A stretch of 64,000 nucleotides of DNA, from the NCBI GenBank assembly GCA_021788015.1, contig JAJYLD010000003.1, positions 33,772 through 97,771 of the forward strand, in the 5' to 3' direction. Every line of letters begins with the position of its first letter. Within the stretch, counting starts at the first letter, position 1. The position numbers were made by a program, and so were the translations under genes. This document shows positions 4,071-64,000 of this stretch, in pieces. Under the pieces are notes generated by a model that saw only the letters and a list, made by a program, of their open reading frames with translations, made no database searches and had not been told where the DNA came from. This DNA comes from a bacterium (GTDB taxonomy: Bacteria > Patescibacteriota > Patescibacteriia > Patescibacteriales > JAKAJF01).

Positions 4071-4174
4071 AATTTTTAATTTTATAATTTTTAATTTTTA
4101 AATAATTTTTAATATCCAAATTTTAAAAATTAGAATATTATTTACAAAATTATAAAATTAAAAATTAAAATTTT
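4071..4174. repeat. long AT-only hairpin (atpE/atpF gap)
   Basis: aatttttaattttataatttttaattttta (4071-4100) pairs with aaaattataaaattaaaaattaaaatttt (4146-4174). Confidence 0.65.
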
Positions 4175-6487: not shown

Positions 6488-7564
6488 TTAAATTCCCAAA
6501 TTTTTTAATTTTTCTCTTTGATCGCGATTTAAGCCGGTCGGCGTTTTTACGATCACTTCGACAAGATGATCGCCTCGACCGCGCCCTTGCAGCTTGGATA
6601 CGCCTTTGCCCTTAAGTTTAAACACGGTTCCCGATTGGGTTCCTTCCGGTATTTTTAGACTGACCGGGCCGTCGATTGTTTCTACATCTATTTTATCACT
6701 CAATGCGGCTTGAGTAAAATTGATATTTACTTTCGAAATAATGTCGTCGCCTTCGCGTTCAAATCTTTTGTCTTCGCGCACTCTTACGCGCACATACAAA
6801 TCTCCGGCCGGTGCGCCTTTTTGCCCCGCTTCGCCCTGACCGGAAAGACGAATCGTCTGATTATTATCGATGCCGGCGGGAACTCTTATTCTTAAAGTCG
6901 CGCGTTCCTTAACCGTTCCCATACCTCTGCATTTTGAGCACTTTTCGTAAATTTTTCCTTCCCCTCCGCAATCCGAGCACGCCATCTGCACCTGCATGCT
7001 CCCGAAAATCGTTCTTTGCACTTTGGTAACATGTCCCGTTCCGCCGCAGACTTTACAAGTTTCAACTTTTTCTCCGGCTTCCTGTCCTGTGCCTTTACAT
7101 TTCCGGCATTGGATATTTTTTTCGATGGTGATTTCTTTTTCCGTTCCGAAAACCGCTTCTGTAAAATCAACGGTTAGGGTTACCTCTACATCGCTTCCTT
7201 TCCTCGCCCTGCTTGTTCTTCTCCCGCCGAAACCGAAAATATCGCCCAATCCGCCGAACATGTCGCCCAAATCGCCCATATCGAAGCCCTCGGCGAAATT
7301 TGAAAAATCGCGAAAGCCTTCGAAGCCGTGAAATCCCCCGCCCGCTTGCGCGTGTTCAAAGGTTGAGCCGAACCGATCGTATTGGGCTCGTTTTTTCGGA
7401 TCGCCCAAAACTTGATAGGCCTCGTTTATTTCTTTGAATCTTTCTTCGTTGCCGCCTTCTTTGTCCGGATGATATTGATGCGCCAACTTACGAAAAGCTT
7501 TTTTAATTTCATCCTGGGAAGCGTTTTTTTCAACGCCGAGAATTTTATAATAATCTTTTGCCAT
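6488..7564 (-). CDS. dnaJ: molecular chaperone DnaJ
   Basis: J domain with HPD (YHPDKEGGN), G/F region, four CxxCxG zinc-finger repeats. Confidence 0.97.
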
Positions 7565-7746
7565 AATTGAAGAATGTATTGGTTTATGCTATACTTTTTT
7601 CGCTCTTTGGAAGAGCGGGCTTATCGTTCGCCCTGGAAAACGATATTTTCCAGAAGAACGGTGCGCGGGGGTCGGATTTTATTCGACCCCCTCTTTACAT
7701 TTTTAAAATTTTGTATAAAGATAAAGAAAAAACATGGGAGGGCTCT

Positions 7747-8265
7747 ATGAACCTTAATAATCTTTACTTCTCACGCAGATGCGAGCTCAAAGGTCTGATT
7801 GATCGCCTTGATAAAAAAGAACGGCATTTTTTCCTTTTCTGTCTTTATAAAATAGCCGATGCCGCCGATTTGATTTTTGAAAATCAGGAAGTTGGCTGTC
7901 ATACTCTTTATAAAATCATTATGCATCTTGTCGATTACCGGATTTATATGGAAATAAACAGAAATATTTTTCTTCCGCTGGATATTTCCATAAACGACTT
8001 TGAATCAGAAATTTACAGAATGCGGGAAACGTGCAGAAACATTACAACGGGAATCAATGCCAAAGACACCCTTTACCAAATTATGCTCGCGTACGCAATA
8101 ATGGGCCAATGCCATGAACGCGGTAAAAATATCCACTGCATCTATCAAGTTTTTGTAAAGGATTCGCCTGAAATTTTTCGCTTTCGGGCGCCCGCTCTTA
8201 TCGCAGATTTTGGTTTTGAGGATATTGAAAACATCCTTTCACAAATCCCGCCGGACAATGAATAG
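7747..8265 (+). CDS. hypothetical protein (172 aa)
   Basis: ORF 7567..8265 begins at TTG inside hairpin-rich DNA; ATG at 7747 has GGGAGGG RBS 6 nt upstream. Confidence 0.5.
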   Translation: MNLNNLYFSRRCELKGLIDRLDKKERHFFLFCLYKIADAADLIFENQEVGCHTLYKIIMHLVDYRIYMEINRNIFLPLDISINDFESEIYRMRETCRNITTGINAKDTLYQIMLAYAIMGQCHERGKNIHCIYQVFVKDSPEIFRFRAPALIADFGFEDIENILSQIPPDNE

Positions 8266-12492: not shown

Positions 12493-12712
12493 TGTCATCC
12501 CGGCCTCCGAGCCGGGATCCAGGAAAAATGTTATGCTGGGGCGTAGCGATAACATCTCGTTTTTTCTGTATACACGAGATCCTGTCGGTTCATTCCACTT
12601 CCCTCCAGGATGACATCCCCTTTATTCAGTATCCCTACGGATTTATCCTGGATTGCGGTTCACCTGCCCGAAATGCTTCGCAATCGAAGCAGGCGGGAGC
12701 CCGCAATGACAA
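12493..12712. mobile_element. MITE-like composite repeat, copy A (220 bp)
   Basis: starts tgtcatcccggcc..ccgggatcc hairpin, ends with 35-mer cctgcccgaaatgcttcgcaatcgaagcaggcggg and gcaatgacaa; ORFs 12474..12719 and 12610..12807 are its translations. Confidence 0.6.
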
Positions 12713-12719
12713 TGTATAA

Positions 12720-13389: not shown

Positions 13390-13422
13390 ATTCTTACTGC
13401 CTACTTCCTACTTCCTAATTAC

Positions 13423-15533: not shown

Positions 15534-15543
15534 GGAGTGCTAA
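15517..15543 (-). promoter_or_regulatory. CIRCE operator (HrcA binding site)
   Basis: TTAGCACTC-tctgtcaag-GAGTGCTAA, perfect match to TTAGCACTC-N9-GAGTGCTAA. Confidence 0.92.
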
Positions 15544-15544
15544 A

Positions 15545-15594
15545 ATGTCATCCTGGAGCTCTATCGCTTCGCTACGCTCCGTTCCAGAATGACG
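15545..15594. repeat. TGTCATCCTGGAGC...GAATGAC hairpin repeat
   Basis: atgtcatcctggagctctatcgcttcgctacgctccgttccagaatgacga; 28 nt below purA stop. Confidence 0.7.
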
Positions 15595-15621
15595 ATAAAA
15601 AAACCGCCTAAAATTAAGCGG

Positions 15622-19034: not shown

Positions 19035-21059
19035 CTAACGAGGCGAAGAACTTACAGCCGCGGTACTTGTAGCCGTGCTCGAAGCCGTGCTTGTCGCATA
19101 GCGACCTTTAAAATACCAATCCACGAATTCATTGGCAACCGGAACGGCGACGGACGCCCCCTCTTCTCCTTGCTCGATTAAAATCGTAAAAGCGATTTGA
19201 GGATGATCATAAGGAGCAAAACCGGTAAACCAGGCGTGAGGAGGTTCTTTAGTTGACCACTGGGCCGTTCCCGTTTTTCCGGCAACTTCAACAGGAGCCG
19301 AGCCCAGCATGGTCGCGCTTCCGGACGTAATCGTCTGGCGCATGCCTTCGCGAACTATTTCCACATTCGGCGGGCTGATAATCCCGCTCCTAATTTCGTA
19401 GGGAGCTATTTTCTGAATGGACTGATCATCGCTATTTAAAATTTCTTCGACGAAATGCGGACGGTAAAGATGGCCTCCGTTTGCAAAATAACTAGTTACC
19501 ATTGTCAGCTGAAGCGGTGTCAATGTAAAAGCGCCTTGGCCAATGGAGACGTGGTAAGTATCGCCAATGTACCATGGTTGTCCGGTTGTTTTTTCTTTCC
19601 ATTCCGCGGTCGGAATAAATCCGGTGGCTTCGCCCGGCAAATCCACTCCGGTTTGAGTACCTAAATTAAAAAGTCTCTCATATTTATCGATCCTGTCCAA
19701 ACCCAAGCCTTGAAAATTTTGATAACCGCCGCCAATGATGTAAAAAAACGTATTTACCGAATCCGCAAGCGCCTTTCTTACGTTGGTCACCCCGTGTCCG
19801 CCCGCTTTCCAGTCCGGGAAAAACCATTGTCCGACATGCAAACCGCCCGTGCTCAAAAAGGTGGTATTTTCATTGATTACCCCCTCCTGCAACGCCGCCG
19901 CAGCTATAACCTGCTTAATGGTCGATCCCGATGGATATTCCCCGCTTATGGCCCGATTGAACAAAGGTTTGTCCTGTTCATTTAAGAGCTGCTCATATTC
20001 CTTCGCGCCGATTCCTTTCGCAAAATCGTTGTTATTATAGGTGGGGAGGCTTACCGAAGCTATTATTTCCCCGGTATTCGGATCCATGACAATGGCCACG
20101 CCTTTTGTCAGATGATGTTTGTTTAACATATCGCGCAAAAGCTGTTCGAGTTTTTGTTGGGCCGCGAGATCGATCGATAAAACCAAATTATCCCCGTCCT
20201 TACCTTGCTCTTCTCCGATTATTTTTTTCTCTTTTCCCAAAGCGTCCACTTCGATTTGTTTCTTTCCGTAAACACCGCGAAGTTCGGACTCGTAATAAGC
20301 TTCGAGTCCCGTCTGTCCCATATAATCGATAGGCAAATAATCGCTGCCCGCCTTTTTTAATTCCGCGTCCGTTATTTTACCCGTGTAGCCCAAGATATGC
20401 GAAAGGGAAAGCGCGCCGCCGAAATCATACTGTCGTCTGGTCGTGTTCGACAATACCACTCCGCTCCAAGTCGCCGATTCAATATAGAGTTGCATGGCTT
20501 TGTCGTAGTCGATATTGTCGGCTATGAACAAAGGATTGAGGGCATCAAGAGAATTTTTATTGACTTTGGCAATTTCGGTTTTTATTTCATCCGGAGTTTT
20601 GTTTCCTAAAATTTGACTGATGCGCGTAATAATTTGATTGAGTTCGTTATCGTCTTTGGGCAGGTCGGAAGGAATGACATAAAGCAAAAAGTTGGCGACA
20701 TTGCGAACCAAGGGAACGCGATTCCGGTCATAGATAATCCCTCTTTTCGGCTCGACGCGTTCGATGCGGATTCGATTTCCTTCGGCCATCGAATAATAGT
20801 AATCCCCTTTCGCGACTTGCAGCCAAGCCGCTCGGGCGACAAGAACGGAAAGGAAAAAAATTAAAATAAAACTTATCAAAGGAAGCCTTCTAAAATCAAA
20901 AGATTTCCCCAAAGTTTCTTTCGTTTTGTTTCCGGAAATATACGAATCTTCGGTCCAGCCCAAACGATAGGAAAAATTGGCCAAATTGCCGAATCTTCCT
21001 TCTTTTATGGAAAAGGGGTCGTCATCCCCCCTTTTTCTTTTTTTATAATTAAAAACCAT
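19035..21059 (-). CDS. mrdA: penicillin-binding protein 2 (elongasome transpeptidase)
   Basis: SGSTIKQ (SxxK), SVN, KTGTA motifs; follows mreBCD; Ser/Thr/Ala-rich C-terminal tail. Confidence 0.9.
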   Translation of the reverse strand: MVFNYKKRKRGDDDPFSIKEGRFGNLANFSYRLGWTEDSYISGNKTKETLGKSFDFRRLPLISFILIFFLSVLVARAAWLQVAKGDYYYSMAEGNRIRIERVEPKRGIIYDRNRVPLVRNVANFLLYVIPSDLPKDDNELNQIITRISQILGNKTPDEIKTEIAKVNKNSLDALNPLFIADNIDYDKAMQLYIESATWSGVVLSNTTRRQYDFGGALSLSHILGYTGKITDAELKKAGSDYLPIDYMGQTGLEAYYESELRGVYGKKQIEVDALGKEKKIIGEEQGKDGDNLVLSIDLAAQQKLEQLLRDMLNKHHLTKGVAIVMDPNTGEIIASVSLPTYNNNDFAKGIGAKEYEQLLNEQDKPLFNRAISGEYPSGSTIKQVIAAAALQEGVINENTTFLSTGGLHVGQWFFPDWKAGGHGVTNVRKALADSVNTFFYIIGGGYQNFQGLGLDRIDKYERLFNLGTQTGVDLPGEATGFIPTAEWKEKTTGQPWYIGDTYHVSIGQGAFTLTPLQLTMVTSYFANGGHLYRPHFVEEILNSDDQSIQKIAPYEIRSGIISPPNVEIVREGMRQTITSGSATMLGSAPVEVAGKTGTAQWSTKEPPHAWFTGFAPYDHPQIAFTILIEQGEEGASVAVPVANEFVDWYFKGRYATSTASSTATSTAAVSSSPR

Positions 21060-21090
21060 AATTAATAATAAATTCTAAACCTGAACATCT

Positions 21091-26271: not shown

Positions 26272-26460
26272 TCATTGCGGCCTCCGAGTCGCAATCCAGG
26301 AGTAAAATGCGTTAAGGCGGATTTTAAATTTTTTATATCCAGCACATCTTTTCTAATTCTTTACACTACAAATCAAAAATTTATTCTAATCACACCTGGA
26401 TCCCGAATCACCTGCCCGAAATGCTTCGCAATCGAAGCAGGCGGGAGTCCGGGATGACAA
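26272..26460. mobile_element. MITE-like composite repeat, copy B (189 bp)
   Basis: tcattgcggcctccgagtcgcaatccaggagtaaaatg ... identical 35-mer cctgcccgaaatgcttcgcaatcgaagcaggcggg ... gggatgacaa. Confidence 0.6.
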
Positions 26461-26546
26461 ATTAAAAGAGACGTGGCATTGCCCCGCGTCTCTAAAAATT
26501 TTTTCAGTGTAATCAGTGAATTCAGTGCGAATCAGTGGTTCAGAAT

Positions 26547-29704: not shown

Positions 29705-29830
29705 AAAATAAAAACCTGAATCAGGTGTTAGTGAGTATGTGAATATTTTAAACCATTATTAGGTTAAACGCAATATTGACAAAAAAACGCTAAAATTTTA
29801 TTATAAAGATTTTTTAATGAAATAATTTTT

Positions 29831-30012
29831 TCAAAACACCACGGGGTTCGGGGGCGGAATTGAGTCCCGCCGACGGCGGGAAGAGAACCTTAATATAAAT
29901 CAATGTGATAGCGAATTGGAGCCCCCAAAACTTTCCCGCCTGCATCGCTATGCGAAGCATTGCGGGCAGGTTGCCTACTTTTTGGTTACAAAAAGTAACT
30001 CCTAGCGAAGCG
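29831..30012 (+). repeat. three-copy structured element, copy 1 (candidate ncRNA), with nested 36-nt hairpin insert
   Basis: blocks GGGGGCGGAATTGAG, CAATGTGATAGCGAATTGGAGCCCCC, hairpin tactttttg-gtta-caaaaagta, CCTAGCGAAGCG; TTGACA-17-TATTAT at 29776-29804 upstream. Confidence 0.55.
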
Positions 30013-30014
30013 TT

Positions 30015-30707
30015 TTAAAATTTTAACCCTATATACCCCAACATCGCATCAAGTTTCTCTTTCCTCTCCCGCCGCGCGGAAAAATATTTTTCGCTTTCGC
30101 AAAAAGTGCATTCTCCGCTCGCCTCGATATTCTTTTCTAAAATTCCATTTTGCAAAAGTTTAATGAAAATAATTTTTTCCAATTCGACAAAAATTTTTCC
30201 GTCCTTCTTTAAAATCGCTTCCGGATATTTTTCGAAATTAAAAAGCACTTCTTTTCCGATTTCAAAATGGCATTTTTGAATCCCCGGACCGATTCCGATA
30301 AGAATATTTTCAGGATTGGCTCCGAATTCATTATTCATTTTCTCAATTGTGTTTTTAATGGTCCCGCCGGTGATCCCGCGCCAACCGGCATGCGCGATTC
30401 CTATAACTTTTTTATTAGGATCAAAAAAATAAATCGGAAAACAATCCGCCATTGTAATTGTTAGCAATATTTCTTTTTCATCCGTCACGAGCCCGTCGGT
30501 TTCAGGGATATTTTTCTCACCATCTTTAAAAACACGAGCGACATTCGTGCCATTAATCAATCCTGCCCTTATGATACTATTCTCAGAAACGGAAAGATTC
30601 GAAAAAAAATTTTCTCTATTTTCATTATTATATTTCATGTCTCCGTCTTTCTTTTCAGAAATTCCGTAAACTAACTCCTGATGTTTTTCAAAATGGGTGA
30701 ACTTCAT
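30015..30707 (-). CDS. pgeF: YfiH/PgeF (DUF152) laccase-domain protein, peptidoglycan editing factor family
   Basis: IGIAHAGWRG, CTFC...YFSARRE motifs. Confidence 0.82.
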   Translation of the reverse strand: MKFTHFEKHQELVYGISEKKDGDMKYNNENRENFFSNLSVSENSIIRAGLINGTNVARVFKDGEKNIPETDGLVTDEKEILLTITMADCFPIYFFDPNKKVIGIAHAGWRGITGGTIKNTIEKMNNEFGANPENILIGIGPGIQKCHFEIGKEVLFNFEKYPEAILKKDGKIFVELEKIIFIKLLQNGILEKNIEASGECTFCESEKYFSARRERKEKLDAMLGYIGLKF

Positions 30708-31690: not shown

Positions 31691-31841
31691 TTGTCATTGC
31701 GGCCACTGAGCCGCAATCCAGGGGTAAAATAAAGGAGGTGATTTTTTAAACAGTATCCAAGCACATCTTTCTGTAGTGTGCTTTTTTATTTCACATCCAT
31801 ACGGCTCACACCCGGATCCTGAATCAAGTTCAGGATGACAA
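31691..31841. mobile_element. MITE-like composite repeat, copy C (151 bp)
   Basis: ttgtcattgcggccactgagccgcaatccaggggtaaaat ... atccaagcacat ... ggatcctgaatcaagttcaggatgacaa; 8 nt below csaA stop. Confidence 0.65.
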
Positions 31842-31848
31842 TTACATT

Positions 31849-33916: not shown

Positions 33917-34090
33917 TTGTTATTGCGGCCTACGAGCCTGCGTACCGGACAGGCAGGCCGCAATCCAGGGGTAAAACATAAAAACGTGAATTTTTAAAAT
34001 GCATCCAAGCACATATTTTTTTAGCCGCATCCTAAATTTTACCATTCCTACTGCTCGCCCCTGGATCCTGAATCAAGTTCAGGATGACAA
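33917..34090. mobile_element. MITE-like composite repeat, copy D (174 bp)
   Basis: ttgttattgcggcc...ggccgcaatccaggggtaaaac ... atccaagcacat ... ggatcctgaatcaagttcaggatgacaa (right arm identical to copy C). Confidence 0.65.
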
Positions 34091-34215
34091 TTTTATTGGC
34101 TCCATGCTTTGCGTGAAGCCTGGATGCAGACCATGATTTTAAAATTCGACCCGTTTGCATTTCGGCCCCGGGTAAAACCCGGAGCCGGCTAAGCAGGAAT
34201 CAAAAAAACTAAGTC

Positions 34216-38192: not shown

Positions 38193-38286
38193 AATTTTTA
38201 ATTTTCAAACAATGCTTAAATTTTTTAATTTTTAAAATTTGAGAATTGAAAACTGTTTAAAAATTTAAAATTGAAAATTAAAAATT
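38193..38286. repeat. long AT-rich hairpin in hpf/secA gap
   Basis: aatttttaattttcaa (38193-38208) is the exact reverse complement of ttgaaaattaaaaatt (38271-38286). Confidence 0.7.
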
Positions 38287-38681: not shown

Positions 38682-38782
38682 ATGTCATCCTGGAGCGAAG
38701 CGATAGGATCCCGTTTTGATTCAGTTCACGAGATTCTATTCCCCGGGTCTGGCCCGGGGCTAAAGACGCTCCGGAATGACAG
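38682..38782. repeat. TGTCATCCTGGAGC...CCGGAATGACA repeat (101 bp)
   Basis: terminal inverted ends, inner ccccgggtctggcccgggg hairpin; 6 nt below rseP stop. Confidence 0.7.
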
Positions 38783-39948: not shown

Positions 39949-39952
39949 GATT

Positions 39953-40041
39953 GGAAATTAGAAAGTAGGATGTAGGAGGTAGAAAGTTGGAATTGGAAAT
40001 TAGAAAAAAATCCTACTTCCTAAATCCTACTTCCTAATTCC
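39953..40041. repeat. word hairpin (ggaagtagg/cctacttcc words) in frr/rseP gap
   Basis: ggaaattagaaagtaggatgtaggaggtag vs ctacttcctaaatcctacttcctaattcc. Confidence 0.7.
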
Positions 40042-40595
40042 TAAATCGTCATTATTTCTTCTTCTTTTTTGTCTCTGATTTCTTTTATTTCGTCATTTTT
40101 CTTTCTTACCTCTTCATCCAATTCTTTAATGAACCTGAATTTGTCGTCCTCGTTAATCTCCTTGTTTTCTTCCGCGTTCTCAATATTGGTTTTAATTTCA
40201 TCCCTAACTTTTCTCAAACTAACACGCGCCTCTTCCGTCTTTTCGTTCAATTTTTTAACCAATTCGCGTCTGTTTTCTTCGGTCATCAGGGGCAATGTCA
40301 ATCTTATTTTGTCGCCTTCATTAACCACGCCGAAACCCAAATTCGCTTCCATAATCGCTTTCTCGAGGTCTTTCAAAACGCTTTTGTCCCATGGGGTTAC
40401 GGTCATGCTTCTCGCTTCGGCCACGGCGATCGTTCCCAATCCGTTCAAGGGCGTTTTCGTTCCGTAGGCTTCGACGTAAATTCCGTCCAAAATCCCCGGA
40501 TTGGCCCTTCCCGTCCTAAGGGAACTGATGTCTTTTTTAAAAAAATCGATTACTTTACCGAATTCATTTTGTTTGGTTTGAATATATTTGTTCAT
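40041..40595 (-). CDS. frr: ribosome recycling factor
   Basis: LRTGRANPGILDGI, LTLPLMTEENRRELVK, SLRKVRDE motifs. Confidence 0.96.
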   Translation of the reverse strand: MNKYIQTKQNEFGKVIDFFKKDISSLRTGRANPGILDGIYVEAYGTKTPLNGLGTIAVAEARSMTVTPWDKSVLKDLEKAIMEANLGFGVVNEGDKIRLTLPLMTEENRRELVKKLNEKTEEARVSLRKVRDEIKTNIENAEENKEINEDDKFRFIKELDEEVRKKNDEIKEIRDKKEEEIMTI

Positions 40596-40600
40596 ATTTT

Positions 40601-40682
40601 AGGTTGTAGTTTGTAGGATGTAGGGCGTAGGATTTTACTGCATTTTAAAAATTCTACAACCTACATCCTACAAGCTACGAGC
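40601..40682. repeat. word hairpin (gtaggatgtagg words)
   Basis: aggttgtagtttgtaggatgtagggcgtaggatt vs aattctacaacctacatcctacaagctacgagc. Confidence 0.7.
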
Positions 40683-42828: not shown

Positions 42829-42970
42829 AAGTTTATTATACCAATCAGGAGTTAAAAAAGCAACCTCACACAATTCGCGGATACCATGTGGACTAAAAGC
42901 ACGGGTACACAATGATTTTCTTCTTATTTAAATAATTGCGACCTTTAAAAATTGCATAAAAAGGTATTCA

Positions 42971-43107
42971 AGTCACCCGGGGCTCGGGGGCGGAATTGAG
43001 CGCCAGCGCGAAGCAACTAAAATTTCATCAACGTGATAGCGAATTGGAGCCCCCGAAACTTCTTTGGTTACTTTCTTGGTTACAAGAAAGTAACTCCTAG
43101 CGAAGCG
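42971..43107 (+). repeat. three-copy structured element, copy 2 (candidate ncRNA)
   Basis: same blocks as copy 1; 3' hairpin tactttcttg-gtta-caagaaagta shows a compensatory c/g insertion. Confidence 0.55.
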
Positions 43108-43158: not shown

Positions 43159-44532
43159 ATGAAAAGATTCTTCCAATTCAAAAAATTACTGCTTTTACTC
43201 GGGGATGTTTTCATTTTATACGCCTCTCTTTACATAACCCTGCTTATTCGCTACCAAGAAATTCCGACGGCTCAAGTTTGGGCGAACCATGTTTGGCCGT
43301 TCACGATTGTCTTTGTTGTTTGGATTATTATTTTTTACATCGCCGATTTGTATAATTTGCATCTCGCCGTAAACAACCCGAAATTTTTCCAGAAGACGAA
43401 TAAAAGCGTAATCGCGGCCGTAATTTTCGCTTTGGCCTTTTTCTACGCCGATCCGGAAACGAAAATCGCTCCGAAAACCAATCTTTTGCTTTATATCGCG
43501 ATTTTTTACATTCTCTTTTTCCTTTGGCGAAGATTGTACAATCGATCCTTAAAATCGTATCTCCCCAAAAAAAATATCGCCATCATCGGCTACGACAATC
43601 AAGTTGAGAAATTAATCGAGGAATTGAAAGAAAAACCTCATCTCGGCTATGTCATTTCTTTCATTCTCGATGATAAAAATGAAAACCGCGAAAATGAAAT
43701 CAACGGAATAAAAATCATAAACGGCATCGAGAATCTTAAAAACGCGGTTTTGGAAAATAAAATCGATACTATCGTTTTAAGTTCGGACCCGAATAAATCG
43801 GATGAATTGAGGACGTCTCTTTTTAATTGCATCTACCTAAAAATAAATTATATCGGCCTTCCCGATTTTTATGAAAACATAACGGGTAAAATTCCGATCG
43901 ATACGATCGGCGAGATGTGGTTTCTCGAAAACTTGAGCGAAGCCGACAAAATTTGGTTCGATTCGTTCAAAAGAATTTACGACGTAATTCTCGCTTTGCT
44001 TTTATTTTTGATTACTCTCCCCTTTTGGTTAATTATCGCCGCTATAATCAAAATCGAAAGCCGCGGTCCGGTTTTTTTTATTATGAAACGGGCGGGCAAG
44101 GATGACAGAAATTTTAAATTGATAAAATTCCGTACCATGCGCGAAGAAGGCAATGATCGCTCTCTGACTACGGAAAACGATGCCCGCGTCACCAAATTCG
44201 GAAAATTTTTGCGAAAGACGAGAATAGACGAAATCCCGCAAGTGATAAATATTTTAAAAGGCGACATGAGTTTTATCGGCCCGCGCCCGGAAAGGCCGGA
44301 ATACGTTATTGAATTGGAAAATGCCATTCCTTTTTATAAAGAAAGGATGCTTATAAAACCGGGCCTGACCGGCTGGGACCAGATTTCCGGCGAATATCAT
44401 TCTCCGACCGTCGAAGACAGTTTGAAAAAGCTGCAATATGATTTATACTACATAAAAAACCGATCCGTTTATCTCGATATCTCGATAATTTTAAAAACGA
44501 TCGCCACGGTTTTATCAAGAGGAGGGCTTTAA
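43159..44532 (+). CDS. polyprenyl-phosphate glycosylphosphotransferase (WbaP/EpsB-type priming sugar transferase)
   Basis: N-terminal TM bundle, ESRGPVFF..R.G..FKLIKFRTM, DEIPQVINILKGDMSFIGPRPERP. Confidence 0.9.
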   Translation: MKRFFQFKKLLLLLGDVFILYASLYITLLIRYQEIPTAQVWANHVWPFTIVFVVWIIIFYIADLYNLHLAVNNPKFFQKTNKSVIAAVIFALAFFYADPETKIAPKTNLLLYIAIFYILFFLWRRLYNRSLKSYLPKKNIAIIGYDNQVEKLIEELKEKPHLGYVISFILDDKNENRENEINGIKIINGIENLKNAVLENKIDTIVLSSDPNKSDELRTSLFNCIYLKINYIGLPDFYENITGKIPIDTIGEMWFLENLSEADKIWFDSFKRIYDVILALLLFLITLPFWLIIAAIIKIESRGPVFFIMKRAGKDDRNFKLIKFRTMREEGNDRSLTTENDARVTKFGKFLRKTRIDEIPQVINILKGDMSFIGPRPERPEYVIELENAIPFYKERMLIKPGLTGWDQISGEYHSPTVEDSLKKLQYDLYYIKNRSVYLDISIILKTIATVLSRGGL

Positions 44533-44535
44533 TTA

Positions 44536-44734
44536 GGATGTAGGAGGTAGGTTGTAGGAGGTAGATTATAAACCAAGCCTACGACTTAAAACCTAATTTT
44601 CGAAATAAACCCCACTTTCGTCGCGGCAGAATCTCTCAGAAGAGGATTTTGCCGATAACCCGTCAGAATCCCTTTCAGGAGATTCTAACGCAACGGAATA
44701 AACCCTACTTCCTACTTCCTACAACCTAACACCT
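44536..44734. repeat. 30-nt-arm word hairpin enclosing ~140 nt
   Basis: aggatgtaggaggtaggttgtaggaggtag (44536-44565) vs ctacttcctacttcctacaacctaacacct (44705-44734). Confidence 0.65.
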
Positions 44735-52772: not shown

Positions 52773-53680
52773 GCGATTGTTTTTTTAATCCCCTCTTCGA
52801 GAGAAAATTCGGGCTTCCAATTCAGGATTTCCTTCGCCTTCCTTGCGTCAAGAACGCTCCTCAGGACTTCGCCCGGGCGCTCCGGCGCGAAATCGTAATC
52901 GAATTTTTCTCCGGTCGCTTTTTCAATGTCGCTTATGATATCAAGGACGCTCACTTCCTTGCCAAGGCCGATGTTCAAAGTTCCGTTATAGCCGCCTTTC
53001 ATGGCTCCGAGACAGGCGTTTATAACGTCGCCGACATACACGTAATCTCTCGTCTGCTTGCCGTCGCCGTAAACGACGCTTTGTTTGCCGTTTAAAAAAT
53101 TATGCAAAAAGATGGTAATTACTCCGCATTCGCCGCCCCTATATTGTCTTGGACCGTAGATATTGGCCAGGCGCAGGACCGTGTAGTCGAGTCCATGGAT
53201 ATTATGAAACATTTCGAGATATTTTTCGGCCGCGAATTTATGGATGGCATAAGGCGACATGGGTTTTATCAAGGTATCTTCCGTCGCCGGCCCGTCCACG
53301 CTTCCGTAGATAGCGCCGCCGGTCGAGACGAAAATAACTTTTTTTACTTTCGTATCCGCGCTCGCTTTAAAAATATTGTAACTGCCGACGGCGTTCACTT
53401 TATTATCAAACATCGGGTCTTCGACGGATTTGATGACATCGATTTGCGCGGCCAGATGAAAAACATAATCGAATTTTTCTTTTTCAAAAATTTCTTGCAT
53501 TTTTTCCGCATCGCAAACATCCGCTTCAAAAAACTTCGCCTTTGAATTTATATATTCTCTTTTGCCGGTCGAGAGATTGTCGATGACGACGACATCATGG
53601 CCTTCGTCTATAAGCCTGTCGACAAGATTTGAACCGATAAATCCGGCACCGCCGGTAACAAGTATTTTATTTCTTTTCAT
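52745..53680 (-). CDS. NAD-dependent epimerase/dehydratase (GalE-like)
   Basis: ILVTGGAGFIGSNL Rossmann motif, YAIHK (YxxxK); start trimmed to MKRNKILVTGG. Confidence 0.9.
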   Translation of the reverse strand: MKRNKILVTGGAGFIGSNLVDRLIDEGHDVVVIDNLSTGKREYINSKAKFFEADVCDAEKMQEIFEKEKFDYVFHLAAQIDVIKSVEDPMFDNKVNAVGSYNIFKASADTKVKKVIFVSTGGAIYGSVDGPATEDTLIKPMSPYAIHKFAAEKYLEMFHNIHGLDYTVLRLANIYGPRQYRGGECGVITIFLHNFLNGKQSVVYGDGKQTRDYVYVGDVINACLGAMKGGYNGTLNIGLGKEVSVLDIISDIEKATGEKFDYDFAPERPGEVLRSVLDARKAKEILNWKPEFSLEEGIKKTIAWTKEPTNF

Positions 53681-54015
53681 ATAAATATGATTAAAATTTA
53701 GAACCGACCCGCCCGCCACGCGAGCCCGTGAGTCTGCTTTTTAAATATCTTCGGCCAAAACCGGTTTTAAAATATTTTTCTCTTTTTATTGCCGCTTCTT
53801 TTAAAAGACATGCTTCATAATAAATTAATCTTAACGGTCGGCGATCGCGAGTTGAGGGTACTTTACCTTTATTATGTTTTATAAATCTCGTCTTTAAATC
53901 ATCTGTCCAGCCGACATATAATTTTTTATCGTTTAAACTTTCTAAAACGTAAGTATAAAACATAAGCTCGCGGGCGATGCGGGCGGGTAAATCCGGCACC
54001 GCCGGTAACAAGTAT
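53666..54015 (-). mobile_element. 350-bp insertion carrying GIY-YIG gene, bounded by 28-nt perfect direct repeat
   Basis: taaatccggcaccgccggtaacaagtat at 53638-53665 and 53988-54015; inner imperfect inverted repeats acccgcccgc (53706-) / gcgggcgggt (-53988). Confidence 0.6.
53691..53963 (-). CDS. GIY-YIG nuclease domain protein (short, UPF0213-like)
   Basis: FYTYVLES...KLYVGWTDDLKTRFIKHN ... REKYFK; start trimmed to MFYTYVL. Confidence 0.85.
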   Translation of the reverse strand: MFYTYVLESLNDKKLYVGWTDDLKTRFIKHNKGKVPSTRDRRPLRLIYYEACLLKEAAIKREKYFKTGFGRRYLKSRLTGSRGGRVGSKF

Positions 54016-54125: not shown

Positions 54126-54413
54126 CTAAAATCTTTTATTCTTAAGGGTAAGAAGGCTGGCGCCTAGCATTTTTGAGAGTTCTTCAAGCTCTTGCAATAA
54201 TTTATTAATTTTAATTTTATCGGTATTTGTCGCGTCTCTTAAAAGCCCAAACCAATATTTGCTTTCATTCGCAGATTTTAATGCTATTTCGTAAAATTTT
54301 ATAAAATCTTTTTTCGATGAAGACGATTTTGCTTCAACGATATTCGCTCCGATTGAGGTTACTGACCTTAACAATTGATCCGCTATTATCCAAAAAATTC
54401 TTTTATTCGGCAA
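54126..54413 (-). CDS. four-helix-bundle protein (23S rRNA intervening-sequence protein family), N-terminus apparently frameshifted
   Basis: QLLRSVTSIGANIVEAKSSSSKKDFIKFYEIALKSANESKYW; family-like N-terminal 28 codons lie in another frame at 54403-54489. Confidence 0.75.
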   Translation of the reverse strand: MPNKRIFWIIADQLLRSVTSIGANIVEAKSSSSKKDFIKFYEIALKSANESKYWFGLLRDATNTDKIKINKLLQELEELSKMLGASLLTLKNKRF

Positions 54414-55417: not shown

Positions 55418-55576
55418 AAAATAAAAAAATGAGATTTCCTAAAAAGTCCCTTATTTCATCTCAATTATCCCATTTTCAAGCATACAAGTCAACCTTTCTT
55501 TTCACGTAACGCATAGCTAAAATAATGCGTATACACAAAATTTAGCGAGCACAGAAAATTGATAAACATTATACAT

Positions 55577-55714
55577 TCAAAACACCAATGGGTTTGGGGG
55601 CGGAATTGAGCGTCAAGGCGAGAGAATTTAAGATAAATCAATGTGATAGCGAATTGGAGTCCCCAAAACTTTTTGCCTACTTTTTGGTTACAAAAAGTAG
55701 GGCCTAGCGCAGCG
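55577..55714 (+). repeat. three-copy structured element, copy 3 (candidate ncRNA)
   Basis: same blocks; GGGGGC pairs with GTCCCC (G-U only if + strand RNA). Confidence 0.55.
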
Positions 55715-55715
55715 A

Positions 55716-56828
55716 CTAATTTTTATATAAATTTCTATACCCTAAAAACGTATTTTTTATAGAAAAAGAGTTTGATTTTTCAAGATTCATCTCTCGCGCT
55801 TTTTGCAAATTTCCGGAATCAGTCAACTTTTTAAACTTTTCAAAAAAATCTTTTTCATTTTCAAGCGCGTATAGCTGCTCTTCCGATAAAAGTTCACGAT
55901 TCCCTCCGACATCGCTCGCCAGAACCGGCAAGCCGGCGGAAAGAGCTTCGAGCAAAACGATGGGAAGCCCTTCGTAACGGGAAGTCAAAACAAACATGTC
56001 GAAAACTTTTATATAACTATGGGCGTGATCATTTCTTATTAAAAAAATTTTATTTCCCAGATTCATGTCCTTGATTAATTTTTCGCAACTCGCCCCGTTC
56101 GGACCGTCGCCGAAAATGATTCCGATCGCGTTCTCTTTTATTTTTAAAATTTCCGGAAACGTCTTAATGAAAAATTCGTAATTTTTCTGATACGAAAGCC
56201 TGCCGACGGAACCGATGATGAATTTCCCGCCTAAATTTAATTTTGTTTCCCGCTCGAGATATTTTATGGCTTCCTCGCTCCCGAGAAAATTCAACTCTTC
56301 AAGTCCGTTGTAAATTACCGTTCCTCTCTTCGCCAGCTTTTTTCTAAGAGCGATTTCAAAATTACTTCGGCTCACAAAAACGGATTCGTCGACGAATAAA
56401 AGCAAAAATTTAAAAAGGAAAAAATAAAACCATCTTGAAAAAAACGGCGCTTGATAATTTTCATCGAGCATGGAAAGTCCTCGAAACGTAAAAACGGTTT
56501 TCGGTTTTGTTTTTGCCATCTTTGCGCCCATGCTTCCAAAAAGGGCATTCGAACTATTAAAATGAACGGCATCGAATTTATTTTTATCCAAAAAATTTTT
56601 TAATTCGAAAATAAAAAAAACGTTCGAGAAAAAATTTCGCGACCGCTTTAGCCGTTTGAATTGGTGGTAAGGAATTTTATTTTTTTCGAGTTCGTTTTTT
56701 AAAAAATCACCCTCGCCGAAACCGACTTCCATATCGACTCCGTTCCGAATCCCTTCTTTGGCCAGATTTAAGACCGAAACCTGCGCGCCTCCGATGTCTC
56801 CTTTTGTGATGACGATTAAAACTTTCAT
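55716..56828 (-). CDS. glycosyltransferase family 1
   Basis: YEGLPIVLLEALSAGLPVLASDVGG motif. Confidence 0.85.
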   Translation of the reverse strand: MKVLIVITKGDIGGAQVSVLNLAKEGIRNGVDMEVGFGEGDFLKNELEKNKIPYHQFKRLKRSRNFFSNVFFIFELKNFLDKNKFDAVHFNSSNALFGSMGAKMAKTKPKTVFTFRGLSMLDENYQAPFFSRWFYFFLFKFLLLFVDESVFVSRSNFEIALRKKLAKRGTVIYNGLEELNFLGSEEAIKYLERETKLNLGGKFIIGSVGRLSYQKNYEFFIKTFPEILKIKENAIGIIFGDGPNGASCEKLIKDMNLGNKIFLIRNDHAHSYIKVFDMFVLTSRYEGLPIVLLEALSAGLPVLASDVGGNRELLSEEQLYALENEKDFFEKFKKLTDSGNLQKAREMNLEKSNSFSIKNTFLGYRNLYKN

Positions 56829-63584: not shown

Positions 63585-63739
63585 TTATTCCCCTCCTTAT
63601 TCGTATTTTAAAATAGCGCGAGTTAAAAACCCGATTTTTTATTATGAAGCATTTACTGCATTCTGTCAAGATTTTGCATAACGTATAACTCATAGCACGT
63701 AACAAATTATTAAAAATATGCGAGCACAGAAAATTTAGT

Positions 63740-63828
63740 GGAATTTTTTGCTGAAAGCGAGGAAAAGACGATTTCACTGTTTGAGCGGAGCGAGTTTGAA
63801 ATCGTCCCGAGCGAAAGCAAAAAATTCC
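63740..63828. other. nested long hairpin in 375-bp non-coding region
   Basis: ggaattttttgct/agcaaaaaattcc (13 bp) enclosing gacgatttca/tgaaatcgtc (10 bp). Confidence 0.6.
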
Positions 63829-64000
63829 CTTAATTTTCTCAAACGAGCGACTTTTTGGTTCTTTTTCTAGAAAAAGAACCCTCCACGGAATGGCCCAAGC
63901 GGAGCGATTGTGGCATGGGTGAAATGTTGACAAATAAATTCGTGAGTATTAAATCAAACCCCCTCTAACCCCTCCCTCCTAAGGAGGGGAATTAAAAAAG

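Follow-up and report, generated by a model that had tools for sequence, protein, structure and literature searches.

A structured, hairpin-rich and probably mobile intergenic repeat family of about 140 nt in Falkowbacteria-like Patescibacteria

A stretch of 64,000 nucleotides (hereafter the window; contig JAJYLD010000003.1 of assembly GCA_021788015.1, positions 33,772–97,771) from a bacterium of the Patescibacteria harbors three copies of an element that are genuine members of a small structured, conserved and hairpin-rich repeat family; a fourth member was found in a related genome. Based on comparison of these sequences, the family is interpreted, with about even confidence, as lineage-restricted, structured, dispersed and probably mobile intergenic repeats of ~140 nt in Falkowbacteria-like Patescibacteria. 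A dispersed mobile repeat was ranked first because of the sharp unit ends, the non-orthologous positions, the empty sites in relatives, a nested insert, indications of extra copies, the missing conserved promoter and terminator and the high identity between genomes. Most likely, its multiplication and movement took place at the level of DNA, and the family possibly crossed between lineages. The host belongs to the Patescibacteria and is Falkowbacteria-like, having a SecD protein fused to a PPIase domain and Falkowbacteria as best named matches. The same contig is public as DAHWTJ010000003.1 (GCA_027328865.1) and is also present in ENA and Logan assemblies.

Copies and anatomy of the repeat unit

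A reading made from the letters of the window (the sequence-only reading) had described three same-strand, intergenic copies of an element with four conserved blocks and had proposed a novel non-coding RNA (ncRNA). All three copies were recovered (Table 1), homology starting at TTCAA and thus reaching 1–4 bases further 5′ than described, and the four blocks are present in each of them. The 17-mer GTGATAGCGAATTGGAG occurs exactly three times in the window against an expectation of 0.16, and a covariance model built from the three copies scored 147–165 bits on them, the best other score in the window being 15.4 bits. Unit boundaries are sharp, since similarity breaks off at TTCAA on the 5′ side and at AGCG on the 3′ side, and no significant similarity among the flanks of the three copies was detected in flank comparison. 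The copies are spaced by 13.1 and 12.6 kb, a regularity that was absent from the 10 kb fetched on each side of the window.

From 5′ to 3′, the unit consists of an 11-nt leader, a rod of ~85 nt, an A/U-rich 3′ hairpin of 22–28 nt with a GUUA loop, and a tail with the consensus CCUAGCGMAGCG; in this five-part anatomy, a short variable hairpin and an A/U-rich linker are placed within the rod. The rod is closed by a GGGGGC/GCCCCC helix, which can be extended by UUU/AAA and GGG/CUU, and it contains an inner AAUU/AAUU helix. Of the helices described previously, the rod-closing one with its G-U pair in copy 3, the variable hairpin following GAATTGAG and the 3′ hairpin with a paired C/G insertion in copy 2 were all found again, the AAUU/AAUU extension being present in addition. 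Two cores of the unit share GAATTG, and most of the variation falls between them.

In the model-fitted alignment, 95% of the cells are paired. Seven pairs were changed on both sides, compared with 2.3–2.9 in shuffled alignments and at most one when the partners were slid; these values derive from four sequences representing about three independent events. Compensatory changes as described previously do occur in the helices, with six of the seven residing in the palindromic 3′ hairpin, where they can be traced to one or two events, mostly the paired C/G insertion of copy 2. DNA palindromes can keep their symmetry without selection on RNA.

Table 1. Coordinates of the repeat copies, their parts and associated features in the window (relatives where indicated).
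Feature	Position	Strand	Description
Copy 1	29830..30012	+	183 nt; 147 bits in covariance model search of the window
Copy 1 leader	5′ end		TTCAAAACACC (sequence)
Copy 1 rod helix	GGGGGC 29850-29855 with GCCCCC 29921-29926	+	fold
Copy 1 variable hairpin		+	7 bp (fold)
GC-rich 36-nt hairpin nested in copy 1	29935..29970	+	89% identity over 38 aligned nt to two window sites
Copy 1 3′ hairpin	29976..29997	+	TACTTTTTG-GTTA-CAAAAAGTA
Copy 1 tail	3′ end		CCTAGCGAAGCG (sequence)
Copy 2	42967..43107	+	141 nt; 154.6 bits in covariance model search of the window
Copy 2 rod	42986-42991 with 43049-43054	+	fold
Copy 2 3′ hairpin	43067-43094	+	12 bp, one additional C-G pair
Copy 3	55576..55714	+	139 nt; 165.1 bits in covariance model search of the window
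Copy 3 rod	55596-55601 with 55659-55664	+	one G-U pair
Copy 3 3′ hairpin	55676-55701	+	tail of copy 3: CCTAGCGCAGCG
Sigma-70-like site TTGACA-17-TATTAT	29776..29804	+	upstream of copy 1; 11/12 matches
16-mer GCGAGCACAGAAAATT	55545..55560 (upstream of copy 3) and 63720-63735	+	0/500 shuffles reach the score
Window-end element	63720..63906	+	long rod, perfect 24-nt palindrome 63857-63880, tail CUCC...AGCGGAGCG
AGCGNAGCG sites	3649, 15565, 15570, 23835, 30004, 38694, 43099, 55706, 63784, 63898		window
GTCAT-bounded family, window	12647-12719, 15540-15600, 26272-26308, 26395-26467, 31692-31725, 31810-31848, 34060-34097, 38685-38777
GTCAT-bounded family, relatives	L024 ~21030-21080; L032 8455-8535		versions such as GTCATTGCGAGGAGCGGAGCGACGTGGCAATC, GTCATCCTGAGCGAAGCGAAGGATC

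A fourth copy at a non-orthologous site in a relative

Relatives were reached via the neighborhoods of SecD orthologues and searched with the covariance model, as the sequence-only reading had suggested. A fourth copy was detected with 122 bits (E 2e-29) at L031 8812–8953, identical to L032 9788–9929. The relative is represented by the assemblies GCA_027348615.1 and GCA_021813875.1, and its SecD is 70% identical to that of the window. This copy is antisense to its neighbors and starts 1 nt after the authentic stop codon of a gene encoding a ProRS-like protein, the C-terminus of which aligns to the last residue with the window orthologue. At the corresponding locus of the window there is no element, because the orthologue overlaps the next gene there. 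The fourth copy thus occupies a site that is not orthologous to those of the window copies. Likewise, the spacers orthologous to those of copies 1 and 2 are too short for the element in relatives, measuring 95 nt upstream of SecD in L031/L032 and 98 nt between the delta′ and sugar-transferase genes in L024. The cores of the fourth copy, GGGGGCCGAACTGAG and GTGATAGCGAATTGAGGGCCCC, differ at a few bases, which is why exact patterns missed it. No copy was found in ~85 kb from four other relatives searched with two models (nothing credible in L024, L030, L033, L034/35 and L036–L042).

Compared with copy 3, the relative's copy shows ~80% identity in the model alignment and 83.6% by BLAST, and is thereby as close to the window copies as these are to one another. 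In contrast, SecD, SecF and ProRS share 61–68% DNA identity between the two genomes, with 39–44% at third codon positions. Such high cross-genome identity would be consistent with a spread in recent times, or with ongoing propagation out of source copies under constraint.

Assembly breaks point to additional members of the family. Logan unitigs end exactly 30 nt (k−1) into a known exact repeat (L029 at the repeat at 26410), and unitigs with the same kind of ending were observed within copy 3 and, from either direction, within copy 1. Short-read unitigs of the same organism from SRR13170411 (the end of L023, both ends of L026 and L029) break ~20–35 nt into repeats, mostly at 30 nt. Since the window copies have no common 31-mer, these breaks indicate that other copies exist in the sample, which implies that unseen copies carry copy-1-type and copy-3-type sequence in exact stretches of at least 31 nt.

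Gene context, strand and transcription signals

Almost all genes of the window are located on the − strand, and the GC skew is negative throughout; the copies, being on the + strand, therefore run antisense to the genes. A Cu-oxidase_4-family gene and SecD flank copy 1, the divergent genes for the DNA polymerase III delta′ subunit and a sugar transferase flank copy 2, and genes encoding a GT4 glycosyltransferase and a UDP-glucose dehydrogenase flank copy 3. These flanking genes are functionally unrelated. The 3′ end of copy 1 is 2 nt away from the stop codon (30015–30017) of the convergent Cu-oxidase_4-family gene, and that of copy 3 is 1 nt away from the stop codon (55716–55718) of the convergent glycosyltransferase gene. 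Together with the relative's copy, such a distance of 1–2 nt applies to three of the four copies, namely all those having a convergent gene, and random placement within the spacers would yield three such 3′ ends with a probability of ~1e-5. A target preference upon insertion, or streamlining deletions sparing the promoter side of the spacer, are possible explanations.

As an alternative to a mobile repeat, the copies may represent a multi-copy family of + strand small RNA (sRNA) genes that are transcribed divergently from the promoter region of a neighbor and act in trans via the conserved unpaired block, or in cis as antisense to the 3′ end of the convergent gene. This explanation, a serious rival, is rated less likely, and several features accord with it. 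Conserved cores alternate with variable hairpins that retain their pairing, and the promoter proposed upstream of copy 1 does exist as a site with 11 of 12 matches. All four copies point away from a gene start, so that a spacer of 49–159 nt could hold a divergent promoter. An identity of 80–84% as opposed to 61–68% in genes is compatible with strong selection on RNA. However, similarity between the copies stops short of the promoter regions, and copy positions differ between the genomes. The −35 box of the site upstream of copy 1 overlaps that of a SecD-facing site on the − strand (TTGTCA-16-AATAAT, 29782–29755). A promoter scan found no site immediately upstream of copies 2 or 3; the nearest promoter-like site of copy 3 ends ~50 nt upstream, and those of copy 2 are located only inside or downstream of the element. 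In the 49-nt spacer of the relative's copy, no promoter was evident by eye. Moreover, no conserved terminator follows the tail in any copy; the only terminator-like site, at copy 2, is made of flank sequence. The two signals expected of an independent sRNA gene, a promoter at a fixed distance in every copy and an intrinsic terminator at the conserved 3′ end, were thus not found, and the earlier proposal of an independent ncRNA gene was not supported, the consensus promoter being confined to copy 1.

Furthermore, the + strand had been called the RNA strand on account of a G-U pair, a call that was not upheld. The helices contain one variable G-U pair on the + strand, in copy 3, with one more in the variable hairpin of that copy, as opposed to four C-A mismatches on the + strand that would read as G-U on the − strand. 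Minimum free energies on the + and − strands amount to −63.6 and −62.6 kcal/mol for copy 1, −44.2 and −44.0 kcal/mol for copy 2, and −37.2 and −29.2 kcal/mol for copy 3. Only copy 3 hence folds better on the + strand, as the sRNA explanation would have it. The strand call is unsupported because C-A mismatches exceed variable G-U pairs and because neither strand of copies 1 and 2 folds better than the other. In addition, the fold z-scores of the copies are modest (−1.6 to −2.5).

The four mismatches that turn into G-U pairs on the − strand would be in line with a gene-sense RNA, i.e., a 3′ untranslated or intercistronic module within mRNAs that protects, processes or terminates the transcript and is selected but not mobile. 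Three of the four copies start 1–2 nt after a stop codon on the gene strand, all of them lie along the gene flow on the − strand, and known intergenic repeats act in this manner (PMC3184786). Nevertheless, this explanation is rated somewhat more doubtful still than sRNA genes: copy 2 is located between divergent genes and has no upstream gene on the − strand, no G+C-rich stem followed by a U-run was found in the conserved part on either strand, and the flanking genes have no function in common. The sharp unit boundaries and the new sites would be left unexplained, so that a cis role appears as a consequence of the repeat more than as an alternative origin.

A small protein-coding gene or decayed gene fragment is effectively refuted. 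One + strand frame is open across the 3′ half up to a conserved TAG in all four copies, and an ATG in copy 3 turns it into an open reading frame (ORF) of 39 amino acids. Public annotations list this kind of 39-amino-acid ORF in copy 3 and one of 48 amino acids in copy 1, on opposite strands. On the other hand, the 8-nt longer hairpin shifts the frame in copy 1, a start codon is missing from copy 2, and an in-frame TAA is present in the copy of the relative. All translated frames of the element were compared with 5.8 billion proteins without any match; such short ORFs seem to be absent from the database. The description of the copies as intergenic stands with regard to real genes, whereas in the public annotations copies 1 and 3 contain spurious ORFs.

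The repeat in a mosaic of small palindromic elements

The additional length of copy 1 results from its 8-nt longer variable hairpin and from a 36-nt insertion originating from a different repeat family. Neither copies 2 and 3 nor the copy of the relative contain this insert, and the insertion is clean, the T-run not being duplicated. Its matches at 12662–12698 and 26410–26446 are on the opposite strand and are themselves nested in other hairpin repeats. The corresponding module, CCCGCCTGC..GCGAAGC..GGGCAGG, was always found nested in another repeat, without target duplication, and resembles a separate, very small element that is prone to insertion.

Several more short hairpin repeat families are present in the window, and together with them the element forms a mosaic of small palindromic repeats. 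Its tail motif AGCGNAGCG was counted 10 times in the window versus 1.55 times expected and is common to four repeat types, in which it serves as tail or loop. It contains GCGNAGC, a very stable DNA mini-hairpin, and may represent a shared recognition or cleavage site. A family of hairpins or miniature elements bounded by GTCAT...CCAGG or ...ATGAC often carries AGCGNAGCG in its loop and is also present in relatives; presumably, it is widespread across many phyla. Literature searches on the GTCAT...AGCGNAGCG hairpin, by sequence string, and on repeats of Patescibacteria returned nothing specific and no paper naming the hairpin.

The 16-mer reported to be common to the upstream region of copy 3 and an element at the window end was recovered, none of 500 shuffles reaching its score. 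The window-end element folds with −61.3 kcal/mol (z = −4.0) and resembles the family in layout but differs in sequence, scoring 15.4 bits (E 0.044) with the covariance model; at best, it is a distant relative of the family. The intergenic region harboring it extends to ~64042 (L025).

The intergenic DNA of the host genome is repeat-rich. Intergenic duplicates are located at 31710–31843 and 33957–34092 (79% identity over 136 nt), inverted ones at 4071–4139 and 38219–38286 (84% over 69 nt), and a self-complementary stretch of 101 nt at 4074–4170. Three tandem G-rich repeats of 30 nt occupy positions 373–462, and short purine-rich repeats of the TAGGAGGTAG type and their complements were found at gene boundaries (39950–40053, 40598–40631, 44518–44565, 13392–13420 and 44703–44731). 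Furthermore, the NAD-binding motif at the N-terminus of an epimerase is encoded by a 28-nt exact duplicate (53638–53665 and 53988–54015), which means that the start of this gene is duplicated; a small GIY-YIG ORF (54126–54413) adjoins it, which suggests an insertion of the homing-endonuclease type.

Among the relatives, seven independent assemblies of CG1_02_37_44-type Falkowbacteria (L036–L042) break just upstream of SecD, within the first 200–450 nt. The break point is inside the 3′ end of an apparent transposase gene, the translation of which (...YNFKRPHQSLNYQTP...) resembles the rve integrase type, and an insertion sequence near SecD appears to fragment these assemblies.

Database searches and tests against known classes

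No known RNA had been recognized in the sequence-only reading, and none was found here: Rfam 15 gave zero matches at the gathering score across the whole window, and ARAGORN detected no tRNA or tmRNA. Permissive Rfam matches on copy 1 reached E 0.39 or worse, far below gathering, and concerned unrelated eukaryotic families. The 17-mer yielded 20 chance matches in 185,579 species genomes, the two from the Patescibacteria group (L011 and L018) being located inside open reading frames. A gapped two-core pattern gave one chance match in JGI metagenomes, and three patterns gave none in viral contigs; in hindsight, exact-core patterns were too strict for the relative's copy. With copy 3 as query, BLAST searches of phage and plasmid sequences returned chance matches only, and a paralogue search revealed no protein family of several members that was of use.

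As for a dispersed repeat, the element was found in more than one copy and at positions that are not orthologous, the orthologous sites of relatives being empty. A plain miniature transposable element bearing inverted repeats (MITE), with target-site duplications and variable presence, had been named previously as the outcome that would speak against an RNA. Of these features, the variable, non-syntenic presence was observed, whereas target-site duplications and terminal inverted repeats were not. The element is not a classical MITE because it has no terminal inverted repeats, target duplications or visible transposase.

Other classes did not match, each on specific grounds. A REP/REPIN assignment disagrees with the unit length of ~140 nt, with CTAC...GTAG around the 3′ hairpin in copy 3 only and with the lack of a Y1 transposase in the stretches with gene calls. 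For a miniature element of the IS200/IS605 type (PATE), the rod and the 3′ hairpin are unrelated in sequence, and the left flanks ATTTT, AGGTA, ATACA and GGTTG share no common target. Regarding integron attC sites, the copies lie 13 kb apart among housekeeping genes, and no RYYYAAC...GTTRRRY core pair was found at the ends. An IS110 bridge RNA does not fit, since no DEDD recombinase gene flanks any copy and the upstream structures of the relative's IS110 are unrelated. K-turn, C/D-box, HDV-like and hammerhead motifs, Helitron/IS91-like ends, a retron and a TIGR array were dropped on reading of the sequence and Rfam results, and a riboswitch was dropped with a downstream gene in the sense direction for copy 2 only.

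A mobile origin in a narrower sense, to which a very small chance is given, would regard the copies as the orphan or remnant RNA or the end module of a larger mobile element, either a PATE with an omega-RNA-like scaffold or the bridge/seek RNA of an IS110/IS1111 element, the conserved loops then being enzyme-binding or guide segments. Subterminal hairpins without terminal inverted repeats or target duplications recall IS200/IS605 ends, the cores share GAATTG with the variation mostly between them, and IS110-family transposases occur in the lineage (L032 6748–7965). Moreover, stand-alone copies of an IS110-associated sRNA have been reported from Pseudomonas putida (PMC12288879). Yet the left rod (~85 nt) is unlike the right hairpin (22–28 nt), while IS200/605 ends have similar hairpins; no conserved target of 4–5 nt was found at either end, and the variable segment is homologous between copies and hence not guide-like. 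No TnpA, TnpB, IscB, DEDD recombinase or Y1 transposase was found among the genes called in ~73 of 84 kb of the contig. Nor is the element similar to the non-coding regions of the IS110 in the relative.

The IS110-family transposase of the relative (PF02371; gene 6748–7965, within L032 6400–7965) is preceded by two similar structured segments, ..CCCCTTGGGTAGAAAGACG...GTCTTTCTGCCCAGC.., which have the appearance of a bridge RNA's two loops. Its gene is intact in L032 and split in L031 (5759–6989).

Weighing of the preferred interpretation

Several observations weigh against the interpretation as a mobile repeat, which is built on four sequences from two genomes, copy number and mobility being deduced from these. 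The ends, TTCAAAACACC (5′) and CCTAGCGAAGCG (3′), lack complementarity and form no terminal inverted repeats, no adjacent direct repeat was detected (the sole match, TAAAATTTTA around copy 1, is separated from the left end by 31 nt), no transposase or partner gene was found in the contig stretches with public calls, and the relative's IS110-family transposase, 1.8 kb from the fourth copy, is neither similar nor linked to it. Other observations may reflect function. All four copies share the same orientation relative to the genes (chance ~1 in 8), and the retention of units of 140–180 nt in a streamlined genome argues against pure junk. Within the two cores, 8 of 48 columns are variable, compared with 21 of 27 between them (Fisher p = 2.5e-7), and the best-conserved block of 20 nt, AUCAANGUGAUAGCGAAUUG, is largely unpaired. 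Such a pattern of conserved cores is just as typical of functional RNA, and conservation above that of housekeeping genes could instead result from purifying selection on RNA.

The pattern suggests that the cores are read by some partner, which could be an RNA or a DNA- or hairpin-binding enzyme. The element might also be a self-contained, horizontally mobile structured RNA gene, such as a small ribozyme or ribonucleoprotein scaffold, in which the nearly invariant, unpaired cores GGGGGCSGAAYUGAG and AUCAANGUGAUAGCGAAUUG would be functional; it would be copied to new positions at gene ends, and the identity of >80% across genera of the Patescibacteria would be kept by RNA selection. This is considered improbable, a shade less so than an orphan module of a larger element; if true, candidate-phyla-radiation bacteria would possess mobile non-coding RNA of a new class.

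For the dispersed mobile repeat preferred here, an enzyme supplied in trans would copy the element, presumably by recognizing its conserved cores and hairpins. With neither terminal inverted repeats nor target duplications present, a single-strand- or hairpin-recognizing (HUH-type) or a site-specific enzyme seems most likely, in preference to cut-and-paste DDE transposition. Given the placement of copies between co-directional genes, their reverse complement is probably co-transcribed and may act as a structured 3′-end or intercistronic RNA, similar to REP, ERIC or SPRITE. Known intergenic repeats are often located at gene 3′ ends, where they are co-transcribed and affect mRNA stability (PMC3184786).

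The unusual traits of the family are its very strong conservation, the invariant unpaired cores and the position 1–2 nt from stop codons. For such streamlined genomes, a 140-nt unit would be remarkable if it is, all at once, retained in several copies, conserved between genera beyond housekeeping genes and placed 1–2 nt from stop codons. If the element is a mobile repeat, it signals active mobilization without inverted repeats or duplications as well as an exchange of genes among uncultured lineages; as an RNA, it would represent a new family. In practice, gene callers create spurious ORFs in the element, and assemblers break contigs at it.

Comparison with known systems

Among functional RNAs, the Qrr, csRNA and LhrC families are comparable, being paralogous structured RNAs of 100–150 nt with conserved unpaired seeds and variable stems. 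Their paralogues each keep a promoter and a Rho-independent terminator and are usually syntenic among relatives. In the element described here, by contrast, neither promoter nor terminator is conserved, and positions differ between genomes. PATEs lack terminal inverted repeats and target duplications, carry subterminal hairpins, are strand-specific and can yield structured omega or re-RNAs. The element differs from them by its dissimilar end hairpins, by the absence of a conserved target tetra- or pentanucleotide and by the lack of TnpA and TnpB in the called stretches.

REP/REPIN elements, which are mobilized by RAYT transposases (HUH Y1), are likewise hairpin-based, located at gene ends, biased in strand or orientation and free of inverted repeats and duplications, and the coexistence of the element with a mosaic of small palindromic units is reminiscent of BIMEs. 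However, REPs are described as 20–40 nt long with a GTAG or CGTC head (PMC3733652), whereas the element measures ~140 nt and shows GTAG/CTAC around the 3′ hairpin in copy 3 only. It also differs from REPINs, having no inverted-pair architecture and no RAYT gene among the called genes.

The closest likeness is to ERIC, BOX, RUP and SPRITE, i.e., multi-copy intergenic hairpin elements of 100–200 nt that fold stably, often reside at gene 3′ ends and are co-transcribed there, and in some cases are modular or carry internal insertions. The element matches these in size, hairpins, gene-end position, nested insertion and patchy presence. ERIC, RUP and BOX carry inverted repeats at their termini and are flanked by target duplications (TA in the case of ERIC), whereas the element has neither. 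Moreover, there is no sequence similarity to any of these families, the host belongs to the Patescibacteria instead of the enterobacteria or pneumococci, and the element is distinguished by two long, near-invariant cores and by a conservation between genomes exceeding that of housekeeping genes. To our knowledge, small dispersed repeats and ncRNAs of candidate-phyla-radiation bacteria are almost undescribed. Most likely, the element is of a known kind but constitutes a new family, from a phylum for which hardly any descriptions of such repeats exist.

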